This document shows, piece after piece, positions 41,492 through 56,100 of a DNA stretch of 64,000 nt. Within the stretch, counting starts at the first letter, position 1, and each line of letters starts with the position of its first letter. Source of the stretch: Candidatus Obscuribacterales bacterium. GTDB taxonomy: Bacteria > Cyanobacteriota > Vampirovibrionia > Obscuribacterales > Obscuribacteraceae. The notes beneath the pieces were generated by a model. The model ran no database searches, was not told the origin of the DNA, and saw only the letters and a list, made by a program, of their open reading frames with translations. The DNA is taken from positions 2,624,001 through 2,688,000 of the forward strand of contig CBDDIJ010000003.1 of assembly GCA_965228855.1 (NCBI GenBank), written 5' to 3'. Both the position numbers and the translations under genes were made by a program.

Positions 41492-41644
41492 AAGGGTGAG
41501 ACCTCAATATTCATGGTAAGGGGGGTCGGGCACCATTTAAGATACCAACCCATCGTTACGGCCCCGTGACATAAGCAGAGCGCAAGCTTCCTGAAACCAG
41601 AGCCTGTCCCTTTCTCCCCGTATTCTTACGGCTCCGACAGCTTG

Positions 41645-41677
41645 AACAAACGAAAAACCCGGGCAACAGCCCAGGTT
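41645..41677 (-). terminator. Intrinsic terminator downstream of the rpoB-paralog gene cluster
   Basis: Minus strand AACCTGGGC-TGTT-GCCCGGGTT-TTTCGTTTGTT. Confidence 0.7.
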
Positions 41678-41881
41678 CTTCTCTACCCCTCAGTGATTAA
41701 GTCTTCGATACCCCAACCATTTCGAATCGGTTTAAAACCGAATCGAATCTTGGTCCAGGTCCGCACACGCGACGAGTCCCTTACCTCATCGCATATGCAA
41801 ATTCCTTCAGGTGCGCTTTACTGCACATTTTTTACTGGTTCAAATCGAAATTCGCTTTGATATTTATTTGAGCCTGTTCTG

Positions 41882-42688
41882 CTACGCAGTGATTGCGTGC
41901 GGCGTAACCGGCACAACACCTGCTGCAGGAACGAACGTGCCTTCCGTAACATTGTCCGCCGTTTGTGGGAACAAGTTGAGAGTGCGACACTCGGCATTCT
42001 GCCATTGCGCGCTAATCATGCCCTTCTTGTAGAGTTCTTGGTGAGTTGCGAAGAAGCAATATTTTGCCAAACTCGAATTCGACATTTGAGCGATCTTCGC
42101 TTGCAGAGCGGCTTGCGACTCATCGTCTCTAGTGACGATTAGAAGCATTTCGCAGCCTGCCTCGACTATTGACTTTTCCAGACCTGCAAGAGTTGCATCA
42201 TCGCAATCAGGATTGTTCGCGATTCCGATATCATATGCGATACCATTGCATTGGAATGAAACCTTTGCGTCCAGGTGGAATTTCGCTTTGTCTTCGCCTT
42301 TCACCGTCGACCATTTGATGTCAGAGGCTTTGCCTTCGTTCTTCGCGATTAGATAAAGCATCCGGATGTTGGCGACTTCGAGGTGATGACGCTGCCAATT
42401 CGCATCGAAGCGATCGGTATCATCTTGCTCTTTGCCGGAGACGCTCTTAGCCATCGGAGACAGCATGTATACGAGCGGTTTGGTCGGCGTCGTCCACCAC
42501 GGCAACTTGGTTCCGTGACGGTGACAGAGAAGATAATCGAGATAAAAGAGTTTTCTGAGACGATCTCTGATCAAGACTGGTTTGTCTTCTTCAGTGATGA
42601 ACCACGAAATATGTTTTTCCAACAAAACTTCGTGCTCATCTATCAAATTGAAGATGAGATGGTCTCTGTCATTGAGCTGAATAGCCAT
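41882..42688 (-). CDS. Replication-relaxation (Replic_Relax)-like wHTH protein with a degenerate C-terminal domain
   Basis: LNDRD..I..LI.EH.VL...RDRLRKL...YL...P.VY.LS...RHHLEVANIR resembles the family pattern; recognised by eye. Confidence 0.55.
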   Translation of the reverse strand: MAIQLNDRDHLIFNLIDEHEVLLEKHISWFITEEDKPVLIRDRLRKLFYLDYLLCHRHGTKLPWWTTPTKPLVYMLSPMAKSVSGKEQDDTDRFDANWQRHHLEVANIRMLYLIAKNEGKASDIKWSTVKGEDKAKFHLDAKVSFQCNGIAYDIGIANNPDCDDATLAGLEKSIVEAGCEMLLIVTRDDESQAALQAKIAQMSNSSLAKYCFFATHQELYKKGMISAQWQNAECRTLNLFPQTADNVTEGTFVPAAGVVPVTPHAITA

Positions 42689-42747
42689 TACTGCCTCGCT
42701 GGGGGTGTTTTTTTTCTGAAGGGTTTTACTGAGTGGTTTAAAAAAAA

Positions 42748-43515
42748 CTAGCGGGTAGGTACTTGTCCGCCAACGCGTTTGATTTCTTCGATAGAAGGAT
42801 TGCCTTTTACGTATTGCTGCAGAGCGTCTGTCTGCTGTCTCATGTGGACGTGATATTTCATTCTCAAATCAGTGTCCAGAGCATAAATCCGCTTGTTGAG
42901 TTCTTTCAAACCCTTCGCTCTGTTGTGAATCGAGTCCAACCCTTCTTCTAACTCCTCCATAGTTTTCGCTGCGGGTCTGGGTTTTATCAGGTCCTCGTAT
43001 ACCGATGCTGAGTCCGCGTACCAATCGGCTACTAAGTTGACATAGTCTCTTATGTCGGTGGTGCCGGGTGGGAACTCTAACTTTCGGAGAACACCAGCGA
43101 GATATCTGTACTTCACAGCAACTTTCTTCGCGGTGTCTGTCCACTGCTGAACGCGCTCTGCCTCTTGATTGAAACCGCGGGTGAGGATCGCGGATTCACC
43201 TTGAGTTTTGCTGTAGCAGAAAACTGTCTGGTCGAAATTTTCGAACCATCTAACTACAGGATCATTGGGATTTGACATCATCGCCAATGCGCCCTGTTTG
43301 CCGAGCGGGTTCTCGGGAACCTCGGTGGCTTTGCGAATTCTTTCTTTGGCGGCAGCCGCTTCGCGAGCACCGCTATCAGAGTTGAATTCATCGTGCATCG
43401 GCTGGGCAGCTACTGCTGCGAAACCGAATGAGCTTGCTGTCAGCACCACGGCTGCAACTAATGCTGCTGCCACCTTCTTAGTTTTGATGCTGTCGTTGCG
43501 TACGCTCATTTCCAC
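42748..43515 (-). CDS. Hypothetical secreted alpha-helical protein
   Basis: KKVAAALVAAVVLTASS..AAVAA signal peptide. Confidence 0.7.
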   Translation of the reverse strand: MEMSVRNDSIKTKKVAAALVAAVVLTASSFGFAAVAAQPMHDEFNSDSGAREAAAAKERIRKATEVPENPLGKQGALAMMSNPNDPVVRWFENFDQTVFCYSKTQGESAILTRGFNQEAERVQQWTDTAKKVAVKYRYLAGVLRKLEFPPGTTDIRDYVNLVADWYADSASVYEDLIKPRPAAKTMEELEEGLDSIHNRAKGLKELNKRIYALDTDLRMKYHVHMRQQTDALQQYVKGNPSIEEIKRVGGQVPTR

Positions 43516-43612
43516 TTTCCGTTTGTGCTTCCAGTCGACATACTTATTTGTATAACGAGTGTCGAACTTTATCTATGTTGTATTCACGTACTTGGCAGCG
43601 GTTTTCCGCTCT

Positions 43613-44578
43613 TTAATGTCCGTACAGTGGATCAACTGGTACGCCACTTCTGCCATTGCTACCGCTCGCTCCAGGTGTTGCCGGAGTATTCGGTCTCGAC
43701 ATGAATGCGTCTTGAACTTGTGATGGAGCCGGTCTCGATACGTTTTGCGCCGGCGTGTCGCTGTTGGCGTTATACGTATTCATTTGAACGATCTTCCAGA
43801 TAGTGTATGCGGAGAGGAGAAGCATCATCCCTGCGGCCGCGCCGAATACTCTGGAACCTCCATATGGATTACCCATGACCATCGAGTAGGCAGCCATCGA
43901 CATGAAGATCGTGGCACTGACTACACCGAGGATAACGAGATAACGCGAGAAGGTCCAAACCGTCGGAAGCGGATGGTCTGGAGTGTAGCCGTAAATGCTA
44001 TTGTGGTCCGGCTTCGGATAACCGTTGCCAGGCGCATCACTATCGATGAATTTGCGTCCGCCATTGTTGGTCGCTTGTGGATACGGAGCAAGAGCTTCGT
44101 TAATTTGTTCCATTTGCGCATCAGTCGCGGTAGCTTCAATTGTTTGTTCGCCCGAACGCATATTGACTCCGAGAATGCCCTCGATTTGACTGATGGCGTC
44201 GTTGCTCAAAGTGTCGGGACGAATTGTGGTGACCTGTCTTTCGCCGCGCGCTCCGTTGTGAAATACACGGACGGTGCTGCGGTCGCGACCTTCACCTGTT
44301 GGAAAACTGTGACCGGGAGTGGCATCAGAGGTTCCAGACGGAACATTCTGGGCGCCGCCCGCATCACCAGGGGTGACTGCAGGAGGCGCGGTGCCGTCGC
44401 CGACCGGTGGTGGCGCAGGTGGTGCGAACTGAGCATTAGCGGAGACCGAAAAACCGACGGAGAAGAGCACGGCAACCGCGAGGGCTAAAACGCTTCTCGT
44501 CAGGCTGTCCTTGTTTCTCATCTTCACTTGCATGTCCTTCGTGTCCTCGTAAAATAACTTGTTCGTTTCCTGTCTCAC
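43613..44578 (-). CDS. Exported/membrane protein with a C-terminal two-helix T4SS-pilin (VirB2/TrbC)-like segment
   Basis: Signal peptide (SANA|Q); YLVILGVVSATIFMSMAAYSMVMG-NPYGGSR-VFGAAAGMMLLLSAYTIW; abuts the rpoB-like stop; true start may be an ATG slightly inside. Confidence 0.55.
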   Translation of the reverse strand: MRQETNKLFYEDTKDMQVKMRNKDSLTRSVLALAVAVLFSVGFSVSANAQFAPPAPPPVGDGTAPPAVTPGDAGGAQNVPSGTSDATPGHSFPTGEGRDRSTVRVFHNGARGERQVTTIRPDTLSNDAISQIEGILGVNMRSGEQTIEATATDAQMEQINEALAPYPQATNNGGRKFIDSDAPGNGYPKPDHNSIYGYTPDHPLPTVWTFSRYLVILGVVSATIFMSMAAYSMVMGNPYGGSRVFGAAAGMMLLLSAYTIWKIVQMNTYNANSDTPAQNVSRPAPSQVQDAFMSRPNTPATPGASGSNGRSGVPVDPLYGH

Positions 44579-47500
44579 TTATCGGTCCGGAGTCGATCCA
44601 CCATCATTGCCGCTGGTGTCGGTTCCAACATGAACTTTTTGAGGTGCTCGTGTGATTGTCATCAGCTCTTGAGCGAGGTTCTGCAATTCACTCAGCGAAG
44701 GGAAGTCGAATAATGGATCTTCCTTGCTGTCGAGCTCCGGTGCTATCAGACTGGACAGCTCAGCAGACGGCGCCGGCTTGGTTTCTTCAACGATTGAGAT
44801 TTTAAGGTCATCATCGTCAGGTCCAAAGAAGCTGTCACCGAGGATGGTGTCAACGAAGTCGTCAACACTTTTTGTACCTGCGGGACTGACTTCTTGCTCA
44901 CTACCCTGGAGATTTGCTGGCTCATCAATGTCATCAATCAAAGACTCCTGTGTGCTGAGTTCGAACTGTGGTTTTCTTCCGTTTCTGCCATTTGTCATGG
45001 ATGTGATCATCGGCAGTCTAGGTGCTCGTACAACTGGCTCGTAGTCGCCACCCGGAATTTCGAGAATCTTCTGACCTTCCGCATTTTCGAGCATGTGAAC
45101 AGAGGACACTTGCAAGGTTTCTTCCAGTGTCGCGTCCTCCGGAAGCGCGATTCTCGAACAGGTTCTGTCGGGCACTGGTTCGAAACTGTCGACCACTCTT
45201 CCGAGCGTGACTTCAAGACCGAGACCGCGAATCTCGCAGCAGAGTCCGTCGAAAGCCGCGGTACGGCTGCCGTTTTGAACATTCTTGCCCTGCACCATAT
45301 CGGTGTAAGCCTGGTGTCTGCCCTGGATGTCGTCGGCTTTGATGGTCATCATCTCGTGAAGGATGTTTGCCGCACCATAAGCTTGAACAGCCCATACTTC
45401 CATTTCGCCCATGCGCTGACCGCCGTGGTTGGCTTTTCCGCCGACCGGCTGTTGAGTGACCGCGGCGTAAGGACCGCCGAGACCGCAACGAGCGTTGACT
45501 TTGTGGAGAACCAACTGGTTCAACTTGAGCATGTACTGGCGTCCGACAAGAACTGGTCTGTCGATTTTTTCACCGGTTCTGCCGTCGGTCAGAATGACTT
45601 TGCCGTCTTCGCCGAACCACTCGTAGCCTGGAGTCTTACGAACTTCAGCCAGTGCTTCCTTGACCAATCTATATGAAGCGTCATCACTGAGAGATTCATC
45701 GAATTGGTGAATGCGGTAATAGCGATTGAGAATATCGGAATAAAGTCCGAGCTGAGTGTCGAACACCTGACCGACGTTCATACGGGACGGTACGCCGAGG
45801 GAGTTGAGCACCAGGTCGACCGGAGTACCGTCGGGAAGGAAAGGCATATCTTCATCGGGAACAATGTTCGCGACGATACCTTTGTTTCCGTGACGTCCAG
45901 CCAGTTTGTCGCCAACTTCAACAGGGCACATTCTTGCGATCAGAACTTCGATTTCGCAGATCACACCAGCTTTCATTTCAGGTGTGGTTTCCGGCGTGAA
46001 GATGCGAACGTCGATTACGCGACCGCCCGAACCATGTGGAACTCTCAAGCTGCTATCGCCCATTTCTTCAGCGACCTTTCCGAAGATTGCCTGAAGCAAT
46101 TCTTCTTCGGAGCTCAATGCGCGATGCTCTTTAGGTGTCAGTTTCGAAACAAGCACATCGCCGGCTTCAACATAAGCGCCGATTTTTGCGATACCACGCT
46201 CATCGAGATGCTCGAGATCTTTGGATGAAACGTTGGGCAATTCCGGTGTGAGAATTTCAGGTCCTCTCAAAGTTTGATAAACGTTGAGCGAATGTTTCTC
46301 GATTTCGATGTGGGTGAGTTTTTGATCGCGAACGAGACCACGACGGACGACGATAGCATCCTCATAGTTGTATCCGCCCCACGGCATGAACGCGATTAAT
46401 AGGTTTCGGCCCAGAGCCAATTCACCTTTGTCGATGCCAGGTCCGTCTGCGATGATTTCGCCGGCTTCAACTTTTTGTCCGAGCGAAACCGATGGACGTT
46501 GGTCGAGAATCGTATTCTGGTTGGTGCGATCGAAACGAGTGAGATTGTAAGCGCGCTTCTCACCGGAAGCTTGCGTGATCTCAATGTTCTGTCCGCTCAC
46601 TTGAGTGACGGTGCCACCACGACGAGCAGTGATCGAATGTCCGGACGAACGAGCCACGATTTTTTCCATGCCCGTTCCAACACGTGGGCGCTCAGGGCGC
46701 ACCAGCGGTAGAGTTTGGCGCATCATCCCGCCACCCATCAGGGCGCGTCCCGTATCATCGTGCTCGAGGAATGGGATCAAACCTGAACCAACTGAGAGGA
46801 AACCTTGCGGCGTGATCCCCATCATGTCGACCTGCTCGGGAGTTACCTCGATGAGGCTTTCTCCGCGACGAGCTGCGACCAGCGGTCCGAGAATTTTGCC
46901 ATCAACACAACGAGTGTCAGGCGGTGCAAGAGTGTATTTCTTATCGTCGGATGGTGTGAGGAATTGCACTTCATCAAGCAAGTAGCCATTCTTCACTTTG
47001 CGATAAGGCACGGTCAAGAAACCATCATCATCGATACGGCAGTAGCTGGCGAGGTACGAAACCATACCGCAGTTCTTACCTTCAGGCGATTCTACGAGAC
47101 AGACCCGACCGATTTGCGACGGGTGAACGTCACGCATTTCGACAGGTGCTGCGTTCGGATCGATACCGCCAGGTCCGAAGGATGTGATTCTTCTTCTGTG
47201 CGAAAGTTCCGAAAGAGGATTTTGTTGATCGAGATACTGAACGAGCGGGTTGCCCGAGAAGTATTTAGTGATTGCGTTGGAGAAAGGTCTCGTGTCGATC
47301 AAATCGTTAGGACTGCCGATCTCTTCGTCTTCGTTGAGTTCGAGTTTCATCTTGATCGAACGGGTCATCTGACCGAGAGCCGGGCGAACAGCTTTGAGCA
47401 TTGTCTCGCCAACACCACGAAGGTGTCTGTTTTCCAGGGAGTCGATGTGATCGATAAAACCCATATCTGAAGGAAGACCGAGAAGATACTCGATTGCTGC

Positions 47501-48370
47501 CATCAAATCGGAAGGGCTGAGTTGCTTGTTCTCGCCATCCAAACCCAGTTTGCGGTTGAAACGGCTGCGTCCAAGTTTGCCGAGGCTATAACGACGCTTG
47601 TCGAACAGTTCACCAAGTGCGGTATTACCTGCACCGGAACCGCCGCCGCCGTCCGGCTTCCAGCCTCTGCCTACGACAGAGAGAGCTTCAGCCTGGGTGA
47701 TTTCTTTCCACTCGATGCGGCTGCGATCGAGAAGTTTTCCGAGACGTTTTTGGATATCTTGTGCGTCAAAGCCCATTGCGGTCAGAAGCGTGGTGCATGC
47801 AATCCACGAACGCTTCGGAAGTTTGACTCTGCACTTAGAACGGCTAGCTTTACCAGGAGTGACTTGCGGATCGATTACGAGTTCGAATGCGATAGGCGCG
47901 CCTTGCTCTGCAAGCATCAGACCTTTGTAGGTGTTGCCTGCCGGTTGGCTGAAGTAGATGCCGGGAGCGCGGACGAGTTGACCGAGGACAACGCGTTCCG
48001 ATCCGTTGATGACGAATGTACCGCGGTCGGTGATGACGGGCATGTCTGCGATGTAGCATTTCGACTTGCGCAGTTCACCAGTTACGGTATCACGCAACCA
48101 TGCTTCCATCATCAGACGACGAGCGTGAGTCATGTTGGTCTTTCGAGCTTGCTCTGCGGAATTCGGATATCCGGAATCCGGAGCATAGTCTTCGAACCAC
48201 CATTTGACTTTGCCATCTGGTCCGACAAAAGTAAGTTCAAATCTGGGGGAGAGGTCACTCGAGATGGGCGAGATTTCAGCGAAGAGATTACCAATTGTCT
48301 CTTCGAGGAAACGCCGATAAGAACGTCTCGGGAACTCTGCCAAATCTGGTGCTTGGAAAAAGAAACTCAT
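44579..48370 (-). CDS. rpoB: Divergent DNA-directed RNA polymerase beta-subunit paralog with a ~200-aa acidic C-terminal extension
   Basis: GTFVINGSERV, GPGG, ESPEG, LIPFLEHDD, GYNYEDA, GDKLAGRHGNKG, GVPSRMNVGQ, GGQRMGEMEVWA; no rplL or rpoC adjacent. Confidence 0.93.
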   Translation of the reverse strand: MSFFFQAPDLAEFPRRSYRRFLEETIGNLFAEISPISSDLSPRFELTFVGPDGKVKWWFEDYAPDSGYPNSAEQARKTNMTHARRLMMEAWLRDTVTGELRKSKCYIADMPVITDRGTFVINGSERVVLGQLVRAPGIYFSQPAGNTYKGLMLAEQGAPIAFELVIDPQVTPGKASRSKCRVKLPKRSWIACTTLLTAMGFDAQDIQKRLGKLLDRSRIEWKEITQAEALSVVGRGWKPDGGGGSGAGNTALGELFDKRRYSLGKLGRSRFNRKLGLDGENKQLSPSDLMAAIEYLLGLPSDMGFIDHIDSLENRHLRGVGETMLKAVRPALGQMTRSIKMKLELNEDEEIGSPNDLIDTRPFSNAITKYFSGNPLVQYLDQQNPLSELSHRRRITSFGPGGIDPNAAPVEMRDVHPSQIGRVCLVESPEGKNCGMVSYLASYCRIDDDGFLTVPYRKVKNGYLLDEVQFLTPSDDKKYTLAPPDTRCVDGKILGPLVAARRGESLIEVTPEQVDMMGITPQGFLSVGSGLIPFLEHDDTGRALMGGGMMRQTLPLVRPERPRVGTGMEKIVARSSGHSITARRGGTVTQVSGQNIEITQASGEKRAYNLTRFDRTNQNTILDQRPSVSLGQKVEAGEIIADGPGIDKGELALGRNLLIAFMPWGGYNYEDAIVVRRGLVRDQKLTHIEIEKHSLNVYQTLRGPEILTPELPNVSSKDLEHLDERGIAKIGAYVEAGDVLVSKLTPKEHRALSSEEELLQAIFGKVAEEMGDSSLRVPHGSGGRVIDVRIFTPETTPEMKAGVICEIEVLIARMCPVEVGDKLAGRHGNKGIVANIVPDEDMPFLPDGTPVDLVLNSLGVPSRMNVGQVFDTQLGLYSDILNRYYRIHQFDESLSDDASYRLVKEALAEVRKTPGYEWFGEDGKVILTDGRTGEKIDRPVLVGRQYMLKLNQLVLHKVNARCGLGGPYAAVTQQPVGGKANHGGQRMGEMEVWAVQAYGAANILHEMMTIKADDIQGRHQAYTDMVQGKNVQNGSRTAAFDGLCCEIRGLGLEVTLGRVVDSFEPVPDRTCSRIALPEDATLEETLQVSSVHMLENAEGQKILEIPGGDYEPVVRAPRLPMITSMTNGRNGRKPQFELSTQESLIDDIDEPANLQGSEQEVSPAGTKSVDDFVDTILGDSFFGPDDDDLKISIVEETKPAPSAELSSLIAPELDSKEDPLFDFPSLSELQNLAQELMTITRAPQKVHVGTDTSGNDGGSTPDR

Positions 48371-50808
48371 TAGTTGCCACCAGCCTTAGCGTCTTCCGTG
48401 TTGGTTGTAGTTCCGTCGTTATTAGACATTACTGACCTTTTGTGAGTAGCTAGAGCCCGCGCCAAGTCATCGGCGTAGGTCTTGATTCCTGGCTTCAATG
48501 CACTTGCTATTCTGAATTCGGTGACTGCTTCGCTTATTCTTCCTGCTGCCATCAGGTTGACGGCTAGTCGGTGGTGATTTGAAGCATTCTCCAGGTCTGT
48601 CGCTACCACATCTCTTAAAATTGCCACCGCCGCCATATGATCTTTTCGAGATTCGGCTTGGGTCACTTCGATGAGCTTTGGGTCTTCCTGAGTGGTTGCG
48701 GAACCCGTCCCAGTTGGAACATTTCCATTATCGTTACCGGGAGCCCCGCCGTAAATGGTGGAATCCACCTGTCCAGTGGGAATACTACGTACTCCATTTT
48801 CGGCTCCCATCGGCTGGGCATTTCCGGGTTGAACAGCTACCTGGTTCGGAGCAAAATTTTGTTGAGGTCGAAAACTGGCCGCAGTCGGAGCGACACCACC
48901 GCCAGGAGCTCCCTCGTAAACGCCTTTGTTCATCTGTGGCGGCACGCCGAAGTTGTTGGTCGCCATCTGCGACGCGCCGAAACTTTGCGGTGCAACACCA
49001 CCTTGCGGATTCACTCCAGTGGGCGCCATACCGTTTGGAACCATCCCGTTTGGAACCATACCGTTGGGAGCCACGCCTGTCATCATCGGAGATTGAACTG
49101 GTGCACGGTTCTGCATGTTCATGGGCGAACCCATCTGCATACCGGGTTGGGGCATCCCTTGCGGAGGCATACCCTGTTGCATCTGCTGCGGCATACCCAT
49201 GGGAGCGCCCATATGCATGCCTGGCGCCATGCCCTGCGACATGTTTTGAGGCATGCCCGTTGACATGTTTTGCGGCATTCCTTGTGGCATTTGCTGAGGT
49301 ATATGCTGCGGAGGACGCTGAGTCATTTGCGGCGGCATTGCGGCGCCGCCAGGTTTAGATCCTGAATTCTGCATCTCCTTCATACGGGCTGCAGCTTCTT
49401 TGTTTTTCTCCGGGTCTATCAGAACGCATGTGAGATAAGCCTGGTGTGCGCCTTTGTAATCGCCGACAGCTTCCAGACACTCTCCCAGAAGAAACTGATA
49501 ACGCGCATTGCGAGGCTCAATCATGACAGCCTGAGACACTTCAGCCAGTGCCTCTTTGCGCAGTCCTTGCGAGAACAAAGTCTCGGCGGCTTTCTTATGC
49601 TTCTCCGCTCGGCCGTGTTGATATGATTTTTGCAGACTGGCTCTGCCGTCGGCCAGTCCGGGATGGTTGGCATTTATGACTTCCAGTTTCTTATACTCAG
49701 CTTCGGCACCGGCATAGTCGCCAGTCAACTGGAGAGCGCCTGCGTACCCGAGGTGGAAGTCCGGGTTCAGCGGATTCTTCGCTACTTGCTTGCGCCATAT
49801 CTCAACCAGTTGAGAGCCGGCCAGAGCATCAGTGTCGTCGAGAATGACGGCTTTGCGAAGCAATGCAGCTGCGCCTGTTTCATCTTTCTGGAGTAGCTTC
49901 ATGATGCCGAGCTGACGTTGTGCCGGTCCGTAGTTGGGATCTTTGACTGCCGCCTGCTGGTAGCATTGCAACGCTTGCCCTGTCTGTCCCCAGCGGTACT
50001 GCAAGTCTCCGAATTTCACGTAAACTTTTGCCGACGGGTCAATCTCCATCGCCTGTTTGTACTCGACGTAAGCGCCTTCGAGGTCATTAGCGTTGATGAG
50101 CTGATCGCCTATGCCAAGTCGAGCATCTGCATCGACCGGGTCAATGCCTTGCTTCTCGAGCGCCGAAGAAAGTCCTTTGACCGCCCGAGCGTTGGAATAC
50201 TCAGCGAACAGCGCCTTTCTGTACATGGTTGCGGCGCCTGCCGAATCACCGACCTTCGCTTTGTAGTCGGCGAATGCTGTGCGCGCAGCGCTCAGATTCA
50301 GCTTGTACTGTTTGTTCGTGGGGTCGTACTGCACGGCTTTCTCGTGCATCGCGATGGCGTCGACCCATTTGCCTTGAGAACCAAAAGCGACACCCTGGTT
50401 GTTGAACTCAATGGCATCGGATTTGTATTTCGCATACGTCTCGGTACGCTTCTTGTCGGCTTTTTCACGAGCCGCTTCTGCCTCTTTCTTGGCGAGTTCA
50501 GCGTCTGCAGCCTTTTTGGCTTCGTCTTCTTTCTGCTGTTTCTCGAGATCACGATAATCAGGTCGTCTCTTGAAACGGCTGAGCGCAGGTGCATGGTACT
50601 GCGCGTCGTTTTCAAAATCTTTTTCACCGCGGCTCGACTGAGTGTCAGCGCTGGCGCGCGGTAGCGGTTTTGCGTTTAGCTTCGTAGCACTGGCTGCTTG
50701 AGAGCAAGAGAGTGAGAGAGTTAACGCCAGAAGAACGAGTGTGAGGGGTTTGCTATACATCAACATTGGAAAAAGAACGGGAGGTTTTGAGGGGTAGTTA
50801 GTCGGCAA
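48370..50808 (-). CDS. Secreted TPR protein with a Gln/Pro/Met/Gly-rich linker
   Basis: Signal peptide, many TPRs; TAATG stop/start overlap with the rpoB-like gene. Confidence 0.85.
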   Translation of the reverse strand: MPTNYPSKPPVLFPMLMYSKPLTLVLLALTLSLSCSQAASATKLNAKPLPRASADTQSSRGEKDFENDAQYHAPALSRFKRRPDYRDLEKQQKEDEAKKAADAELAKKEAEAAREKADKKRTETYAKYKSDAIEFNNQGVAFGSQGKWVDAIAMHEKAVQYDPTNKQYKLNLSAARTAFADYKAKVGDSAGAATMYRKALFAEYSNARAVKGLSSALEKQGIDPVDADARLGIGDQLINANDLEGAYVEYKQAMEIDPSAKVYVKFGDLQYRWGQTGQALQCYQQAAVKDPNYGPAQRQLGIMKLLQKDETGAAALLRKAVILDDTDALAGSQLVEIWRKQVAKNPLNPDFHLGYAGALQLTGDYAGAEAEYKKLEVINANHPGLADGRASLQKSYQHGRAEKHKKAAETLFSQGLRKEALAEVSQAVMIEPRNARYQFLLGECLEAVGDYKGAHQAYLTCVLIDPEKNKEAAARMKEMQNSGSKPGGAAMPPQMTQRPPQHIPQQMPQGMPQNMSTGMPQNMSQGMAPGMHMGAPMGMPQQMQQGMPPQGMPQPGMQMGSPMNMQNRAPVQSPMMTGVAPNGMVPNGMVPNGMAPTGVNPQGGVAPQSFGASQMATNNFGVPPQMNKGVYEGAPGGGVAPTAASFRPQQNFAPNQVAVQPGNAQPMGAENGVRSIPTGQVDSTIYGGAPGNDNGNVPTGTGSATTQEDPKLIEVTQAESRKDHMAAVAILRDVVATDLENASNHHRLAVNLMAAGRISEAVTEFRIASALKPGIKTYADDLARALATHKRSVMSNNDGTTTNTEDAKAGGN

Positions 50809-51007
50809 ACTCGCAACCTCGCTCGGTTCGCCGAATGTGAGCCCAGCTTAAGGTTATACGACGGCATAGTCCATTGGGGGATATCCCACCCCCTTCGTAA
50901 ATCTCCCACAATTCACATTAAAATTGCGAAGCCGCAACGCAAGTGAATTCCGACAGACGTTTTCAAAACCGAAAAATTTTACGGACGATTCGCCCACCTT
51001 ATAAATG

Positions 51008-52198
51008 TTATTCATCGTCGCTTTCTTCTGAATCATAGTCATCGTCATCTTCACGATAGCCGCCCAGTCCGACGCCGACCAGTTTCGTCTCGCCTTTCAC
51101 CTTCTTGAGCTCTTGTGGCGGATAGCCGCAGTATTCTTCCATGTAGTTGGCGAGGTCAGTTGAATGCGTTGTCAGCCAAATCTGAGTGGTTTCAGAAGCG
51201 GTGGCTAGCAATCTGGCGAGTGGTTCATACAAACTTGGATGAATACTTGTTTCCGGTTCATTTATTGCAAGAAGAGACGGCGGTGTCTTGCTGAAGATAG
51301 CGGCCAGCAAACAGAGATACTGGAGGGTGCCGTCGGAAAGTTCGTGCGCGTCGAGCGGTCGTTCCAGACCGGGCATGGTCATTCGCAATTTCAAGCCCGC
51401 GTTGGATAAACCTATCTGCAAGTCGCTTTCGGGAAACGCATCTTTTAGTGCTTTAAAAAGCTTCGGTGCGTCGCCGTACTCGATGATGGTTGCAAGAGCT
51501 GAAACGAAATCGCTGCCGTCATGCGCCATAATGTCGGTGCGAACGGCAATTTGAGGTCGGCGCAATGGCGAACTCTTGTCTGTTCTGAAGTGATGGTAAA
51601 AACGCCAGTTGAGAAGTTCGAGCCGGAGCATCGACAACTCCGGGAATTTAAGCGGATCTCTGACGCCGGTAAAAATCGACTCGTTGGGCGCGACGCGCAT
51701 CGAGTAATCGCTGTTCTGTTTTTCAACAACATCGCGAACGCTTACCTCCATACCCTTGCGTTTCAAAAGCATTGACTTGGAGCCATTTTTCAAACGAAAC
51801 AGTTTCTCACTTTTAATTTCGACATCATTTCGAAATATCGTGTTGCCGGCGCCGTGAACTAAAACGCGACCCATCTCGGCATAACCCGTTCGATAATCGC
51901 CAGACACGTAGCCACACTCGAGATCGTATTGCAGGTCATCGACCTTTACCGAAAGTGTCATTGAAATTGGGTCTTTCTTGGAATAAGCGCCGCACCACAA
52001 TGACGAGTCCATGCCGCCTTCTTCACCTATAGAGCGTGCAAACTGACCGCTGGCGATGGTCGACATAAGATATAGTGCGCGATAGAGATTGCTTTTGCCG
52101 CAACCGTTCGGTCCGACAAAAACGTTGACTGGATTGAGTTTCAACCAGATGTCTTTGACCGAGCGATAGTGTTTGATTTGAAAATCTTTGAGCGCCAC
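51008..52198 (-). CDS. ABC/SMC-like AAA ATPase (COG4637-like), copy 2
   Basis: GPNGCGKSN, WRFYHHFRTD, LSDGT, NEPETSIHP, TTHS. Confidence 0.88.
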   Translation of the reverse strand: MALKDFQIKHYRSVKDIWLKLNPVNVFVGPNGCGKSNLYRALYLMSTIASGQFARSIGEEGGMDSSLWCGAYSKKDPISMTLSVKVDDLQYDLECGYVSGDYRTGYAEMGRVLVHGAGNTIFRNDVEIKSEKLFRLKNGSKSMLLKRKGMEVSVRDVVEKQNSDYSMRVAPNESIFTGVRDPLKFPELSMLRLELLNWRFYHHFRTDKSSPLRRPQIAVRTDIMAHDGSDFVSALATIIEYGDAPKLFKALKDAFPESDLQIGLSNAGLKLRMTMPGLERPLDAHELSDGTLQYLCLLAAIFSKTPPSLLAINEPETSIHPSLYEPLARLLATASETTQIWLTTHSTDLANYMEEYCGYPPQELKKVKGETKLVGVGLGGYREDDDDYDSEESDDE

Positions 52199-52201
52199 CG
52201 G

Positions 52202-53401
52202 CTAGTCCTCCGGCTCGTTTTTCTTCAACGCGGCACGATAAGCCCGTACCGCAGCCGCGTCGTCATCCTCGACTTCGGCTCTGGCACTGCGAACCTCTTC
52301 GCCCCTGATCACAGTTTCACCTGCAACTTTTTCCAGCTCGATAATTTTGCAATTGCCCTGCGCCTTAACGTGTTGAGCCAATTCGGAGGAATGAGTTGTG
52401 ATAAGCAGTTGCGAGCGCCTTGATGCTGCAACTATCAATTCAGCAAGCGGCTGAGCGAGGTCCACATGCATGCTGGTCTCCGGTTCGTTGAAAACCATAA
52501 AGGATGCGGGTCTCGGTGTCAGCAATGCAGCAAGCAAACACAGGTATTGCAAAGTTCCATCGGACAATTCCCGAGCGTGAAGAGGACGAGCAAGTCCGGG
52601 ATATTCCATGTATAAGCACAATTCACCATCATCTTCAACGATTGAAACAGACGCACCCGGAAATGCCCGGTCGACAAATTGATCGAACTCTTGCGCACTG
52701 CCTATGGTGCGAATCGTGGCTACCACAGCAGCAAGATCGCTGGCATCATGGCTCAAAATCGGCGTCATCGAGGCGAGTTGGTTTCTCCTCACAGGTGATT
52801 GCAAGTCGGTTCTAAAATCGTGGTAGAAGCGCCAGTCGGCAAAAAGCATGCGAAGAGAAGAGAGCTCAGGAAATTTTTCTGGCTCTCGAAGTTCAGACAA
52901 GACGCTTTCGTTCTTCAACAACTTCACCGGGTAGTCGACAGTACGTCCCTCCAGATTCTTTGCTCGAACAGAATTTCCTTTCCTGCTAAACAGTGCGATT
53001 GGTTTTTCTCCAGTCAACTCAACGGTCTCGACTTTGATATCCGGGTCGTCTTTGAACAGGCGCAGCCCCTCGCCGAATTGACCGTCGCTCGGACGCTCGC
53101 TAATAGCGATTCTTCCAAATTCCATTTCGTATTGGAGCTTATCAAATTTGATCGCGAGACGCGTTCTATGGTCATCTGAAACATGGCGATGTCCCGCCCA
53201 TGAAAGTGAGGGGACGCCCCCTTCCTCGGCGACTCTTCGAGCAAATTGCCCATGAGCAGCGCTTCCTAGAAGTTGAATAGCTTGGTAGATGTTGCTTTTG
53301 CCACAACCGTTCGGCCCGACCAGAATAGTTATGCCGCCGAGTTTCAGTTGAAACTCCCGCAAAGAGCGATAACCGCTGATTTCAATTTCGCGAATTTGCA
53401 T
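52202..53401 (-). CDS. ABC/SMC-like AAA ATPase (COG4637-like), copy 1
   Basis: GPNGCGKSN, WRFYHDFRTD, LSDGT, NEPETSMH, TTHS. Confidence 0.88.
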   Translation of the reverse strand: MQIREIEISGYRSLREFQLKLGGITILVGPNGCGKSNIYQAIQLLGSAAHGQFARRVAEEGGVPSLSWAGHRHVSDDHRTRLAIKFDKLQYEMEFGRIAISERPSDGQFGEGLRLFKDDPDIKVETVELTGEKPIALFSRKGNSVRAKNLEGRTVDYPVKLLKNESVLSELREPEKFPELSSLRMLFADWRFYHDFRTDLQSPVRRNQLASMTPILSHDASDLAAVVATIRTIGSAQEFDQFVDRAFPGASVSIVEDDGELCLYMEYPGLARPLHARELSDGTLQYLCLLAALLTPRPASFMVFNEPETSMHVDLAQPLAELIVAASRRSQLLITTHSSELAQHVKAQGNCKIIELEKVAGETVIRGEEVRSARAEVEDDDAAAVRAYRAALKKNEPED

Positions 53402-53439
53402 CCAAGATACTCGCAGTTGTCGGCTTTGTGGAACAGAAC

Positions 53440-54870
53440 CTAGGTCCCGTCGTGTTCGGCGGGTCCGGTAATCATGTTGAATCGCGGCGTGTATAGGTGA
53501 TTGTCACTCACGATACACGCGGACAAATTATTATGCACTCCCGGATTGGCTAGAGCCATGAGACCGAACGCGAAAAGCAGGATGGATACAAGCGATACGA
53601 AAGCCTTAAACATTACTCCGATATCACTATAAGTCACAAAGAAAATTGATGCGAAAAAAACAACCATCATCGAACAAGGAATTACTTTCATCAGGTGCCG
53701 AATTGAAGATCGACGAAACGACACGCGCGCGCCGTCAACATCGGTGACTCGAAGCCTGAACACGCTCTTTCCGAGCGTAGACTCCTTAGGCGAGCTCTCC
53801 ATGAGTGCGTGATACATCCAGTTAATCGTCACCACTACTAGTACCGCAAGGGTAAAGCCAAGTTCCGGATTCGACAGAGGCGCAGCCAGAAGGCTGGTTG
53901 AAAACGGCTGAGTCGTAAGTTTCGCAACTATCAGCGGAATGCTCAAGATTGCCAATGCAGGGGCAAAGCAGACGAACAGAGCGTCCAGAAATCCGATACC
54001 GAACGTCGCTAAAATGAGCGGTTGCCATTGACTCATCTCGAACGGCGCGTGCGAAGCGTTTGCACCAGATGCGATATCAATGGCATTGGCTACGACGAAC
54101 AGAAAAAACGCGCTTAAACAGCCTACTACAAAGCCATCGATTACCTGAGCTATTATTCGTTGAGGCGGCCGCGCAGGCAACCACTCGCTCATTTGCGCGC
54201 GGTGAGCCTGCAACTGGAGCGAGGTCATTCGATCCTTTTCGGACATATCGTCCAGACGAAGTTTTTCATAGACCTTGCTACGCTCAGCGAAAAGCTCGAT
54301 CATCTCGGATTTAGATGCCATGCCGATCGCCGTCGTGTAATCGATGATCGCCTTGTCGTCTTGCCCGATCAAATGATAGGCGCGCGCCCTGCGTCGCACT
54401 AGTTCAACTAACAACCCACGATCTAATTTCGGTCCGATGGTTGCAGTGGCAAACTCGATAATCTTGTCGTAGTCGCCCAACTCACGGTAGGCTTCGACGA
54501 GTCGAAAACAATCGTAGTAATACCAGCGCCGAGACGGATCGATTTCGATGGCTCGCTCAATATCGGCGGCCACTCCAGTGAAGTTTCCTAACTCGAAAAA
54601 TGCCCAGGCGCGAAGAGCAAAAGCGCCGGAATCGGCCGGAGCCAGATCGATTTTCGCGCTGCAATCGTCGACGGCACCATCAAGGTCTTCCATGCACAGT
54701 CTTGCGTATGCTCGCAATCCGTAGTTGAACGCTTCGCCAGGGTCCATCTCAATTCCGCGCGTCATGCACTTCTCCGCTTCCTTGAAACGCAAAAGCACGA
54801 CGTTGATCAAACCGCCAACTCCGTATAAGTATGCTCGTAAACTTCGTAACCCCTGCCGCATAAAATCCAC
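53440..54870 (-). CDS. TPR plus RDD-family membrane protein
   Basis: N-terminal TPRs; RIIAQVID, Y.ALMESS...TLGK..FRLRVTD..G..VSF.RS.IR. Confidence 0.85.
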   Translation of the reverse strand: MDFMRQGLRSLRAYLYGVGGLINVVLLRFKEAEKCMTRGIEMDPGEAFNYGLRAYARLCMEDLDGAVDDCSAKIDLAPADSGAFALRAWAFFELGNFTGVAADIERAIEIDPSRRWYYYDCFRLVEAYRELGDYDKIIEFATATIGPKLDRGLLVELVRRRARAYHLIGQDDKAIIDYTTAIGMASKSEMIELFAERSKVYEKLRLDDMSEKDRMTSLQLQAHRAQMSEWLPARPPQRIIAQVIDGFVVGCLSAFFLFVVANAIDIASGANASHAPFEMSQWQPLILATFGIGFLDALFVCFAPALAILSIPLIVAKLTTQPFSTSLLAAPLSNPELGFTLAVLVVVTINWMYHALMESSPKESTLGKSVFRLRVTDVDGARVSFRRSSIRHLMKVIPCSMMVVFFASIFFVTYSDIGVMFKAFVSLVSILLFAFGLMALANPGVHNNLSACIVSDNHLYTPRFNMITGPAEHDGT

Positions 54871-55236: not shown

Positions 55237-56100
55237 TTGGACCCAGGATTACAACCAATGTCAAGCGGACCACCTCAGAGACCTCCTTCAGTCTTTAGAC
55301 CACGAACGGTCCTGTGTGAGCGGCACGAACTCATCCGATTCGGCTTGAGACGCGTGGTATCAGAAGTAGTTGAGATCGTCGGTGAAGCATCGGACGGAAT
55401 GGCCGCGACAGAACTGATTCGTCGCATGCGCCCGGATTTCATCATAATGGACGTCGACCTCGACGTTCTCAACGGCGTAGAAGTCTGCCGCAGAGTAGCG
55501 CAAGAATTGCCGAACTCACACGTCCTGGTTCTCACAGATTCGTATCACGCCACCAAGTATCACAACCAGCTGATTCGCGCAGGCTCGCGGGGATTCTGCC
55601 TTAAGAGTTCAGGTCCGAGAACCTTGTTCGAAGCGATTGAACAGGTCACGCGCGGATTGCCCTACTGTGATCCCAAGATTACGCAACTGGTCAAGCAACA
55701 ACCGACGACCAGTATGCCGAACAGCAATCTCACCGATCGCGAAATCGAAGTTCTCATTCGTCTTGACTTGAGAAACAAGGAAATTGCAGAGGAGCTTGAC
55801 ATGAAGCTCCGCACTGTAGAAAAACACATCGAGTGCATCCTGGCAAAGCTCAAGGTTCCGACTAGAACGGCAGCAGCACTTAAAGCCGTGCAATTGGGAT
55901 ACGTTCTATTACCCAAGATGCCGGGTCGCGATCCGGTCACAGGCATCAGCCACGAGCAAACAGTGGCAGAGCTGCAAGCGGAGCTGGCAATTGCCAACGA
56001 GCACCTGAAGGCACTCTTGAGACAGAATGAACTTCTGAAAGAAGCTTTGAACGACAAATTAAGACGTCCTCAGCAGCCACCGCGACCGGAAAACGAGTAA
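55237..56100 (+). CDS. NarL/LuxR-family response regulator with a C-terminal coiled coil
   Basis: IIMDVDL, CLKS, LTDREIEVL..NKEIAEEL..TVEKH..KL. Confidence 0.88.
   Translation: MDPGLQPMSSGPPQRPPSVFRPRTVLCERHELIRFGLRRVVSEVVEIVGEASDGMAATELIRRMRPDFIIMDVDLDVLNGVEVCRRVAQELPNSHVLVLTDSYHATKYHNQLIRAGSRGFCLKSSGPRTLFEAIEQVTRGLPYCDPKITQLVKQQPTTSMPNSNLTDREIEVLIRLDLRNKEIAEELDMKLRTVEKHIECILAKLKVPTRTAAALKAVQLGYVLLPKMPGRDPVTGISHEQTVAELQAELAIANEHLKALLRQNELLKEALNDKLRRPQQPPRPENE

Follow-up and report, generated by a model that had tools for sequence, protein, structure and literature searches.

A conserved five-gene cassette of the Obscuribacterales encodes a divergent RNA polymerase beta subunit and shares an upstream motif with chromosomal DNA-transfer genes

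Why would a bacterium keep a second RNA polymerase beta subunit gene in one row with genes for envelope proteins and a relaxase-like protein? The question is raised by a stretch of 64,000 nucleotides from a Candidatus Obscuribacterales bacterium (GenBank assembly GCA_965228855.1, contig CBDDIJ010000003.1, positions 2,624,001 to 2,688,000; hereafter the window). Here an earlier note had described five co-oriented genes encoding a secreted TPR protein, an RpoB-like protein, a pilin-like membrane protein, a secreted protein and a Replic_Relax-like protein (genes 1 to 5; gene 2 is referred to as rpoB2), and had read them as a possible conjugative or contact-dependent, perhaps predatory, system with its own transcription component. 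The cassette is a real, conserved system that has apparently gone undescribed so far, and we found no description of the RpoB2 paralog in the open-access literature, supplements aside. We propose, at a probability of about 0.45, that RpoB2 provides an alternative polymerase core for DNA transfer and is predicted to act on pre-opened or single-stranded DNA.

The layout reported in the earlier note held up when measured. All five open reading frames (ORFs) lie on the minus strand (Table 1); the stop of the TPR gene and the start of rpoB2 share the letters TAATG, gene 3 abuts the rpoB2 stop, the remaining gaps, said to be under 100 bp, are 97 and 59 nt, and the terminator said to follow the cassette was found as a terminator-like hairpin at 41652-41681 (-24.9 kcal/mol, z -4.4; equal stability in 0/200 shuffles). 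Related loci were the best 80 of 92 fetched by gene 5 similarity, and synteny was counted over those with at least 9 kb upstream (n = 64), at least 3 kb upstream (n = 70) or at least 2.5 kb downstream (n = 70). The complete five-gene order was present in 63 of the 64, the remaining locus lacking gene 3, and rpoB2 in 70 of 70; among 20 loci selected by rpoB2 instead, the arrangement was identical wherever the contig extended far enough. The arrangement is conserved far beyond chance, which answers the question of synteny in relatives that the earlier note had left for comparison. In 58 of 63 loci the end of the TPR gene overlaps the start of rpoB2, and in the other five the two are 0–3 nt apart, which suggests translational coupling. 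The RlpA-like hydrolase gene that had been listed as a neighbour proved incidental, being found in only 3 of 70 loci, and was rejected as a cassette member. One genome carries two rpoB2 cassettes (G013:C21 and G013:C50), possibly a binning artefact given its 8% contamination.

By family, RpoB2 is a full-length, divergent bacterial RNA polymerase beta subunit. It scores 1054.9 bits against NF001616 (cut-off 896) and 1008 against TIGR02013 (cut-off 801), and the Pfam Rpb2 domains 1, 2, 45, 3, 6 and 7 were all found, five over their cut-offs and domain 1 under it. Its best solved relatives are 8syi, 8h3v and 8gzg, which we take to be cyanobacterial. Identity to the housekeeping RpoB is 42%; the latter is encoded directly before rpoC1 and rpoC2 (G000:C5:142266-146150, G000 being the genome of the window), and both this position and the universal non-template contacts (W183, fork loop 2, gate loop) are wanting in rpoB2. 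A search of the genome for a second beta-prime or alpha subunit returned one rpoA, one rpoC1, one rpoC2 and a single NADFDGD motif only, so that RpoB2 would have to share them. RpoB2 also has a conserved C-terminal extension (approximately residues 1060-1150) and an acidic tail (window 44579-45200); a long acidic tail is likewise present in the housekeeping RpoB of Obscuribacterales.

Sequence constraint was analysed by aligning E. coli RpoB and 21 housekeeping copies with 68 distinct paralog sequences, which are related; some of them share a genome. The housekeeping set is invariant at 499 positions. The paralogs keep 269 of these, and at 135 a different residue is fixed in 90% or more of them; 99 residues common to E. 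coli through Vampirovibrionia are fixed differently. The paralogs themselves share 453 invariant columns and a mean identity of 78%. The ratio of non-synonymous to synonymous substitution rates (dN/dS) is 0.056-0.066 for three same-genus pairs, compared with 0.03-0.045 for housekeeping pairs, and by this measure rpoB2 is under purifying selection. Taken together, the fixed replacements and the low dN/dS point to rapid change that then came under new constraint, and not to decay. FastTree groups all paralogs in a single clade (support 1.0) on a long stem of 1.16; the placement of this clade outside the phylum, at support 0.69, is probably long-branch attraction. In two genomes (G004 and G018) rpoB2 is broken into two ORFs, by sequencing error or a real frameshift.

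The distribution of these replacements over the protein carries the argument for its function. Kept in the paralogs are E813, D814, K1065, K1073, R1106, Q688, R678, R529, H526, D446, D1084 and G1215, with E813, D814, K1065, K1073, R1106, Q688, R678 and the alpha contacts D1084 and G1215 invariant in all 68. Replaced are W183P, D199P, R540P, R542A, V547M, S531T, R903Q and H1237Q, and the gate loop is now glycine-rich. Grouped by function, 12 of 13 active-site residues are kept (the loss being H1237Q, in 68/68) and all seven alpha contacts (0/7 lost), while the non-template, core recognition element (CRE), gate-loop and fork-loop-2 set has lost 16 of 22, compared with 169 of 475 elsewhere (p 0.001, for residue sets that were chosen after the data had been seen, in sequences that are related). 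The rifamycin pocket showed no enrichment of change (9/17, p 0.2). The roles given here to individual residues are those generally assigned to them; for H1237, K1065 and K1073 they follow 10.1101/2021.04.06.438613, in which H1237 contacts the primer phosphate. W183 has been reported to stack on the +1 non-template base, and its replacement by alanine to shorten open-complex half-life about fivefold, from 257 to 49 s, with elongation not slowed (PMC4499132). With its catalytic face kept and its non-template grip lost, RpoB2 would seem better suited to DNA that has been opened beforehand.

The link to DNA transfer comes from the sequence upstream of the cassette, where two degenerate boxes in tandem (Table 1), not mentioned in the earlier note, precede the TPR gene in 55 of 65 loci and 0 of 65 control windows; the other 10 loci have a single box or a near variant. 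The proximal box is abutted by the -35 element, TGGACT here and TAGACT in most relatives, of a conserved element that we infer to act as a sigma-70-type promoter; a generic promoter scan found nothing above chance. The tandem motif occurs at only three sites in the 8.2 Mb genome, preceding the cassette, a virB4-virD4 sub-operon of a type IV secretion system (T4SS) and a locus with a 78-amino-acid gene and a GAF kinase gene. A strict pattern gave 42 matches in 20 of 41 genomes, all from the family of the window, and the reversed pattern gave none; of the 30 matches fetched, 12 lay before the TPR gene, 10 before the T4SS sub-operon, six before the 78-amino-acid gene and one before another T4SS-cluster gene, with one unassigned. 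A matrix built from cassette promoters only ranked the DUF2225-virB4-virD4 promoter second in the genome (score 22.7), with nothing above 18 in a shuffled 2.6 Mb contig, and found the box 5' of the orthologous T4SS gene in six of nine other genomes (eight of nine by eye). A combined matrix, trained in part on T4SS promoters, is not counted as independent support. The regulatory link between cassette and T4SS is well supported at the sequence level. A variant box pair (TGGGA-N4-CCGCA-like, then TACGT) was also seen 5' of the first T4SS-cluster gene in several genomes (G000:C3, upstream of 3065575).

The candidate activator is a response regulator of the NarL/LuxR type, 81-96% identical across the order and, in 43 loci, the immediate divergent neighbour of the TPR gene. 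In the window it is separated from the cassette by inserted RDD and AAA genes; the insertion, present in this genome plus some close relatives, comprises two AAA_21 ATPase genes and a TPR-RDD gene (window 51008-54870). The third motif target (G000:C5:110583-112541, L212) encodes a 78-amino-acid protein, 88-100% identical in close relatives and with a weak RuvX match, followed by a GAF-HATPase histidine kinase that is a candidate partner of the regulator.

Pilin-like genes and one large membrane gene share a chromosomal cluster with the T4SS sub-operon, in which DUF2225 is accompanied by a virB3-like gene (so called from position and size alone), virB4, virD4 and Replic_Relax. The gene order of the cluster is kept in nine other fetched genomes, one of them split, the 138-amino-acid pilin-like protein is 79-94% identical across genomes, and no integrase was noted in the fetched stretches; the cluster looks like a domesticated DNA-transfer system that is core to the order. 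VirB4-like matches in the genome lie at C3:3.05 Mb, C2:2.0 Mb and on C4, and VirD4-like matches at C3:3.045 Mb, C2:1.84 Mb and on C4, with a weak one at C3:2.56 Mb; none falls in the window. As VirB4 and VirD4 lie approximately 370 kb away, the cassette is not itself a secretion system. The conjugative reading of the earlier note is supported in part, by the conserved synteny, the relaxase-derived gene 5, weakly by the hairpin of gene 3, and by a core chromosomal VirB4/VirD4 system that has the upstream motif in common with the cassette; nothing that we found points to predation. Other mobilisation genes are a second VirB4 cluster (G000:C2:1983354-2007731; L139, L140) with DUF2225, large membrane genes, a TrbI-like gene and TPR genes, in which no strong match to the shared motif was found; a module of relaxase-like and coupling-protein genes (G000:C2:1833968-1837611); and the VirB4/VirD4-like matches of the 182 kb contig C4.

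Gene 5 ties the cassette to this cluster by homology. A search of 1.84 billion proteins with its profile gave three outside matches, two of them PF13814 proteins (E 5e-6 and 6e-4), and gene 5 aligns over its full length (237 columns) with the Replic_Relax protein beside virD4 (E 2e-4). Among 529 T4SS-locus ORFs its hidden Markov model (HMM) matches only the six VirD4-adjacent Replic_Relax proteins (E down to 8e-11). PF13814 is a PD-(D/E)xK family, often fused to a helix-turn-helix domain (PMC3424549), and equals the MOBC relaxase that is paired with VirD4 (PMC5357655). On this evidence gene 5 and the MOBC relaxase-family gene next to the core chromosomal virD4 are paralogs. We take the catalytic motif of the relaxase family to be D...E-x-(D/E); the VirD4-adjacent copy retains D...EID, whereas in gene 5 the ExD part is lost, D140 being present in 60 of 77 sequences, G155-I156-A157 standing opposite EID/EMD of the T4SS copy, and the position aligned to the first ExD residue being G in 61 of 77. 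The Replic_Relax likeness claimed for gene 5 was thus borne out in homology and fold and failed on the Pfam cut-off and the nuclease motif: gene 5 of the window gives no match to PF13814, only 1 of 17 members of its family matches, at E 0.004, and family member P0125 scores 20 bits where the gathering score is 25.3. Conservation averages 91% per column in residues 1-76, a region that is likely a winged-helix DNA-binding domain, and 51% in residues 121-240. In the structure model the N-terminal part is poor; PD-(D/E)xK nuclease-fold chains rank top for the C-terminal part, at middling scores (Z 7.0-7.4), and Foldseek gave no match at E 0.001. A complex prediction for gene 5 with RpoB2 residues 1-750 scored 0.05.

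The products of the other three genes are predicted envelope proteins. Gene 1, which probably starts near 50763, has Pfam TPR matches, a predicted signal peptide and a Pro/Gln/Met-rich linker. The gene 3 product (321 amino acids) combines a predicted signal peptide, a Pro-rich PxGDG segment, a soluble domain and a C-terminal two-helix hydrophobic hairpin; the PxGDG segment is common to the first two T4SS-cluster genes (E to 1.5e-9), and the hairpin weakly resembles the cluster's 138-amino-acid pilin-like protein (9/9), its HMM matching only nine pilin-like ORFs among the 529 at a weak E of 0.002-0.009. Of the pilin-like label given to gene 3, the two-helix hairpin is real; the resemblance to pilins is weak, and a Pfam search with the protein of the window and 17 family members gave no match. 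Homologs of gene 3 outside the cassette lie alone beside efflux genes (G020:C18, L176) and 3' of T4SS-like membrane genes (G008:C4, L177). Gene 4, listed in the earlier note as a secreted protein, gave no clear match to a T4SS-specific fold: its product is a predicted secreted helical bundle (model pLDDT 76) with only generic bundle matches (best Z 9.6), no match in Foldseek at E 0.001 or in the Atlas, and two weak paralogs in the genome.

Table 1. Features of the cassette, its upstream region and the linked T4SS cluster; positions are those of the window unless a contig is named.
Feature	Position	Strand	Basis
Gene 1, TPR protein	48370..50808	-	Pfam TPR matches, hydrophobic N-terminus
Gene 2, rpoB2, 1263 aa	44579..48370	-	Curated RpoB models and Rpb2 Pfam domains
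Gene 3, pilin-like, 321 aa	43613..44578	-	Alignment, hairpin HMM; no Pfam match
Gene 4, predicted secreted helical bundle, family unassigned	42748..43515	-	Structure model
Gene 5, Replic_Relax (MOBC)-derived, cytoplasmic	41882..42688	-	Profile, alignment and fold comparisons
Intrinsic-terminator-like hairpin, cassette 3' end	41644..41688	-	Folding energy versus shuffles
Tandem operator-like motif, two degenerate TGGGA-N4-(T/C)(A/C)C(G/C)A boxes ~20 bp apart	50873..50909	-	Upstream alignments, pattern search
Predicted sigma-70-type promoter: TGGACT, 17 nt, TAAGCT	50845..50873	-	Conserved in upstream alignments
NarL/LuxR-type response regulator, candidate activator	55237..56100	+	Pfam Response_reg and GerE
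MOBC-VirD4-VirB4 cluster (L136, L137), ~370 kb from cassette	G000:C3:3042915-3065575

The cassette is nearly universal in Obscuribacterales. In the family to which the window belongs, 76 of 77 genomes have gene 5, as against none of 171 Vampirovibrionia of other orders; in the sister family it is present in G027 and was not found in G025 and G026. The cassette-linked VirD4 has nearly the same distribution (74/77, 2/2 in the sister family and 0/171 at E 1e-40), and the search for VirB4/VirD4 elsewhere that the earlier note had suggested leads to a core chromosomal system; the NarL-type regulator follows suit (74/77, 1/2 and 0/171). These near-identical distributions support a role for the cassette in DNA transfer. 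By hand count of the listed matches, the C-terminal half of rpoB2 is matched at 77% or better in 89 of 107 genomes of the order and in 36 of 39 high-quality genomes; of the three high-quality genomes without one, two (G006 and G226) have gene 5 within 2.5 kb of the contig start. Among the matches listed for 150 other genomes of the phylum (seven more are unlisted) none to rpoB2 exceeded 51%, and the double rpoB matches among those listed were halves of one gene. No relative was detected in viral contigs with the query used, and a metagenome scan with the distant member P0130 as query gave no match.

Given five genes that are held together and an rpoB2 under purifying selection, we suggest the following sequence of events. 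The tandem motif would very probably place under one control the cassette, the T4SS sub-operon (DUF2225-virB3-like-virB4-virD4-relaxase) and the 78-amino-acid gene with its GAF kinase, and as it also stands before conjugation genes, a second form of RNA polymerase is likely to be on together with DNA transfer. On balance, the divergent NarL-type regulator would bind the boxes beside the -35 element and activate; a signal reaching it would switch on cassette and transfer ATPases via the normal sigma-70 enzyme. With somewhat better odds, RpoB2 would join the one alpha and one beta-prime of the genome to form an active core, likely competing with the normal beta for both. More tentatively, this core may open ordinary promoters poorly and act instead on transferred or relaxase-processed DNA, making early transcripts or primers there, with the relaxase-derived gene 5 product as its likely DNA-targeting factor and the products of genes 1, 3 and 4 as likely envelope accessories of the transfer apparatus. 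The picture in full, an order-wide conjugation-dedicated RNA polymerase that serves as single-stranded DNA transcriptase or primase, is aimed by a nuclease-dead relaxase and is governed by one two-component switch, is doubtful as a whole.

Several observations weigh against a transfer-dedicated core. T4SS genes without a detectable rpoB2 occur in G025 (94% complete), G026 (88%) and G020 (85%), and G020 retains gene 3 alone in a different context. (Co-loss of cassette and T4SS in G020 was considered and rejected, because its T4SS cluster runs off the contig end.) In three of nine fetched clusters the relaxase gene does not adjoin virD4. Gene 3 has weak homology to pilins: its product is far longer than a pilin, the cluster's own 138-amino-acid proteins also have no Pfam pilin match, and the Atlas leads from gene 3 to TrbC/T4SS pilin (0.76-0.80) are under the bar. 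In RpoB2, losses extend over the whole chain (185 of 497 invariant positions), such that the pattern may in part be general divergence; the flap-tip and switch-3 residues that contact sigma show no excess of losses (17/42, p 0.74); and the p value for the non-template set is overstated, the residue sets being post hoc and the sequences related. Initiation or assembly might suffer from H1237Q, and likewise from E1279Q, P1320T, E1321A and S1322A, four changes at the C-terminal interface with beta-prime.

Some of these points would sit better with an enzyme that works on ordinary double-stranded promoters. RpoB2 would then be an active alternative core for a mating or differentiation programme, taking its specificity from gene 5 or from one of many sigma factors (19 sigma-70 region 2 matches in the genome) and re-tuning transcription, much as the actinomycete rpoB(R) has been described as a global switch (PMC5431353). 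An invariant active site and +2G pocket (R151, D446, R451) and sigma-contact regions without enriched loss agree with this. We nevertheless consider it unlikely, since W183P, D199P, the glycine-rich gate loop and R540P/R542A abolish conserved bubble contacts, the cassette has no sigma gene, and the motif has three targets only, with sigma-70-like promoters that the normal enzyme would read. RpoB2 could instead be a decoy that binds alpha and beta-prime and damps housekeeping transcription in mating or dormancy, or that binds nucleic acid without catalysis. The retention of every alpha contact and the 99 otherwise shared residues fixed differently, H1237 among them, would fit; a decoy, however, would hardly maintain catalytic residues, and with 12 of 13 active-site residues and the entire K1065-K1073 motif kept this explanation is improbable.

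More improbable still is that RpoB2 is a cargo of the T4SS, delivered to recipient or prey cells to re-fit or poison their RNA polymerase. The motif held in common with virB4-virD4, the coupling to a predicted secreted TPR gene and the T4SS proposed for a predatory relative (PMC4451040) speak for the idea, but RpoB2 has none of the variability of an effector, with its 78% mean paralog identity and strong purifying selection; the system of that relative, V. chlorellavorus, is described as T-type and partly plasmid-borne (PMC4451040), and the VirD4 of the cassette-linked cluster gave no match at E 1e-40 in other orders. Least credible is a spare for rifamycin resistance like Nocardia rpoB2 or Nonomuraea rpoB(R). 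The fixed pocket changes V146L, Q510P, S512V, S531T, L533F, I572V and S574Y might be read in that way, yet H526, D516 and Q513 are kept in 68/68, change is not enriched in the pocket, and both order-wide retention and the shared motif would be left without an explanation.

The closest known cases are nevertheless the rpoB(S)/rpoB(R) pair of Nonomuraea gerenzanensis and rpoB2 of Nocardia farcinica, in which there are likewise two beta genes for one beta-prime, hence two possible RNA polymerase forms, and changes in the fork/rifamycin region. Nonomuraea rpoB(R) is set apart by a deletion of six residues and five substitutions, of which H526N is the central one (PMC5431353). RpoB2, by contrast, is only 42% identical to its housekeeping counterpart, keeps H526 in 68/68, is nearly order-wide and is cassette-borne, beside relaxase- and pilin-derived genes. 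Conjugative and mobilisable elements that combine a MOBC relaxase with VirD4 and VirB4 have the same parts as the C3 cluster, the relaxase-family gene of which, by homology, gave rise to gene 5; unlike a MOBC relaxase, gene 5 falls below the Pfam cut-off, lacks ExD and does not adjoin virD4. The chromosomal C3 cluster also differs from the Vampirovibrio T4SS, which is described as T-type and partly plasmid-borne (PMC4451040). Action of RNA polymerase on transferred single-stranded DNA in conjugation has a precedent in Frpo of the F plasmid, although in the account given in PMC9849209 it is the normal host holoenzyme that reads the Frpo hairpin, with no dedicated subunit.

According to the prevailing view, bacteria re-tune transcription by sigma swaps on one core, and known duplicates of rpoB are nearly identical to each other. 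A beta subunit that has diverged this far, is kept across an order and has an upstream motif in common with a core conjugation system would mean regulation by a swap of the core subunit itself. In plants, core subunits were duplicated and diverged at the surfaces that handle DNA; the resulting enzymes, Pol IV and Pol V, are devoted to a special pathway and still share other subunits. They are eukaryotic, have both large subunits replaced and act in RNA silencing, and the comparison with RpoB2 is an analogy only. RpoB2 is a natural variant in which the active site is kept and promoter-opening contacts are dropped, and it could be studied in vitro without culture. For the Obscuribacterales, a little-studied sister group of the photosynthetic cyanobacteria, the findings suggest that DNA transfer is a conserved programme encoded on the chromosome, for which a regulator and an operator can be proposed; if it is real, a conjugation-dedicated polymerase would be the bacterial counterpart of plant Pol IV and Pol V.

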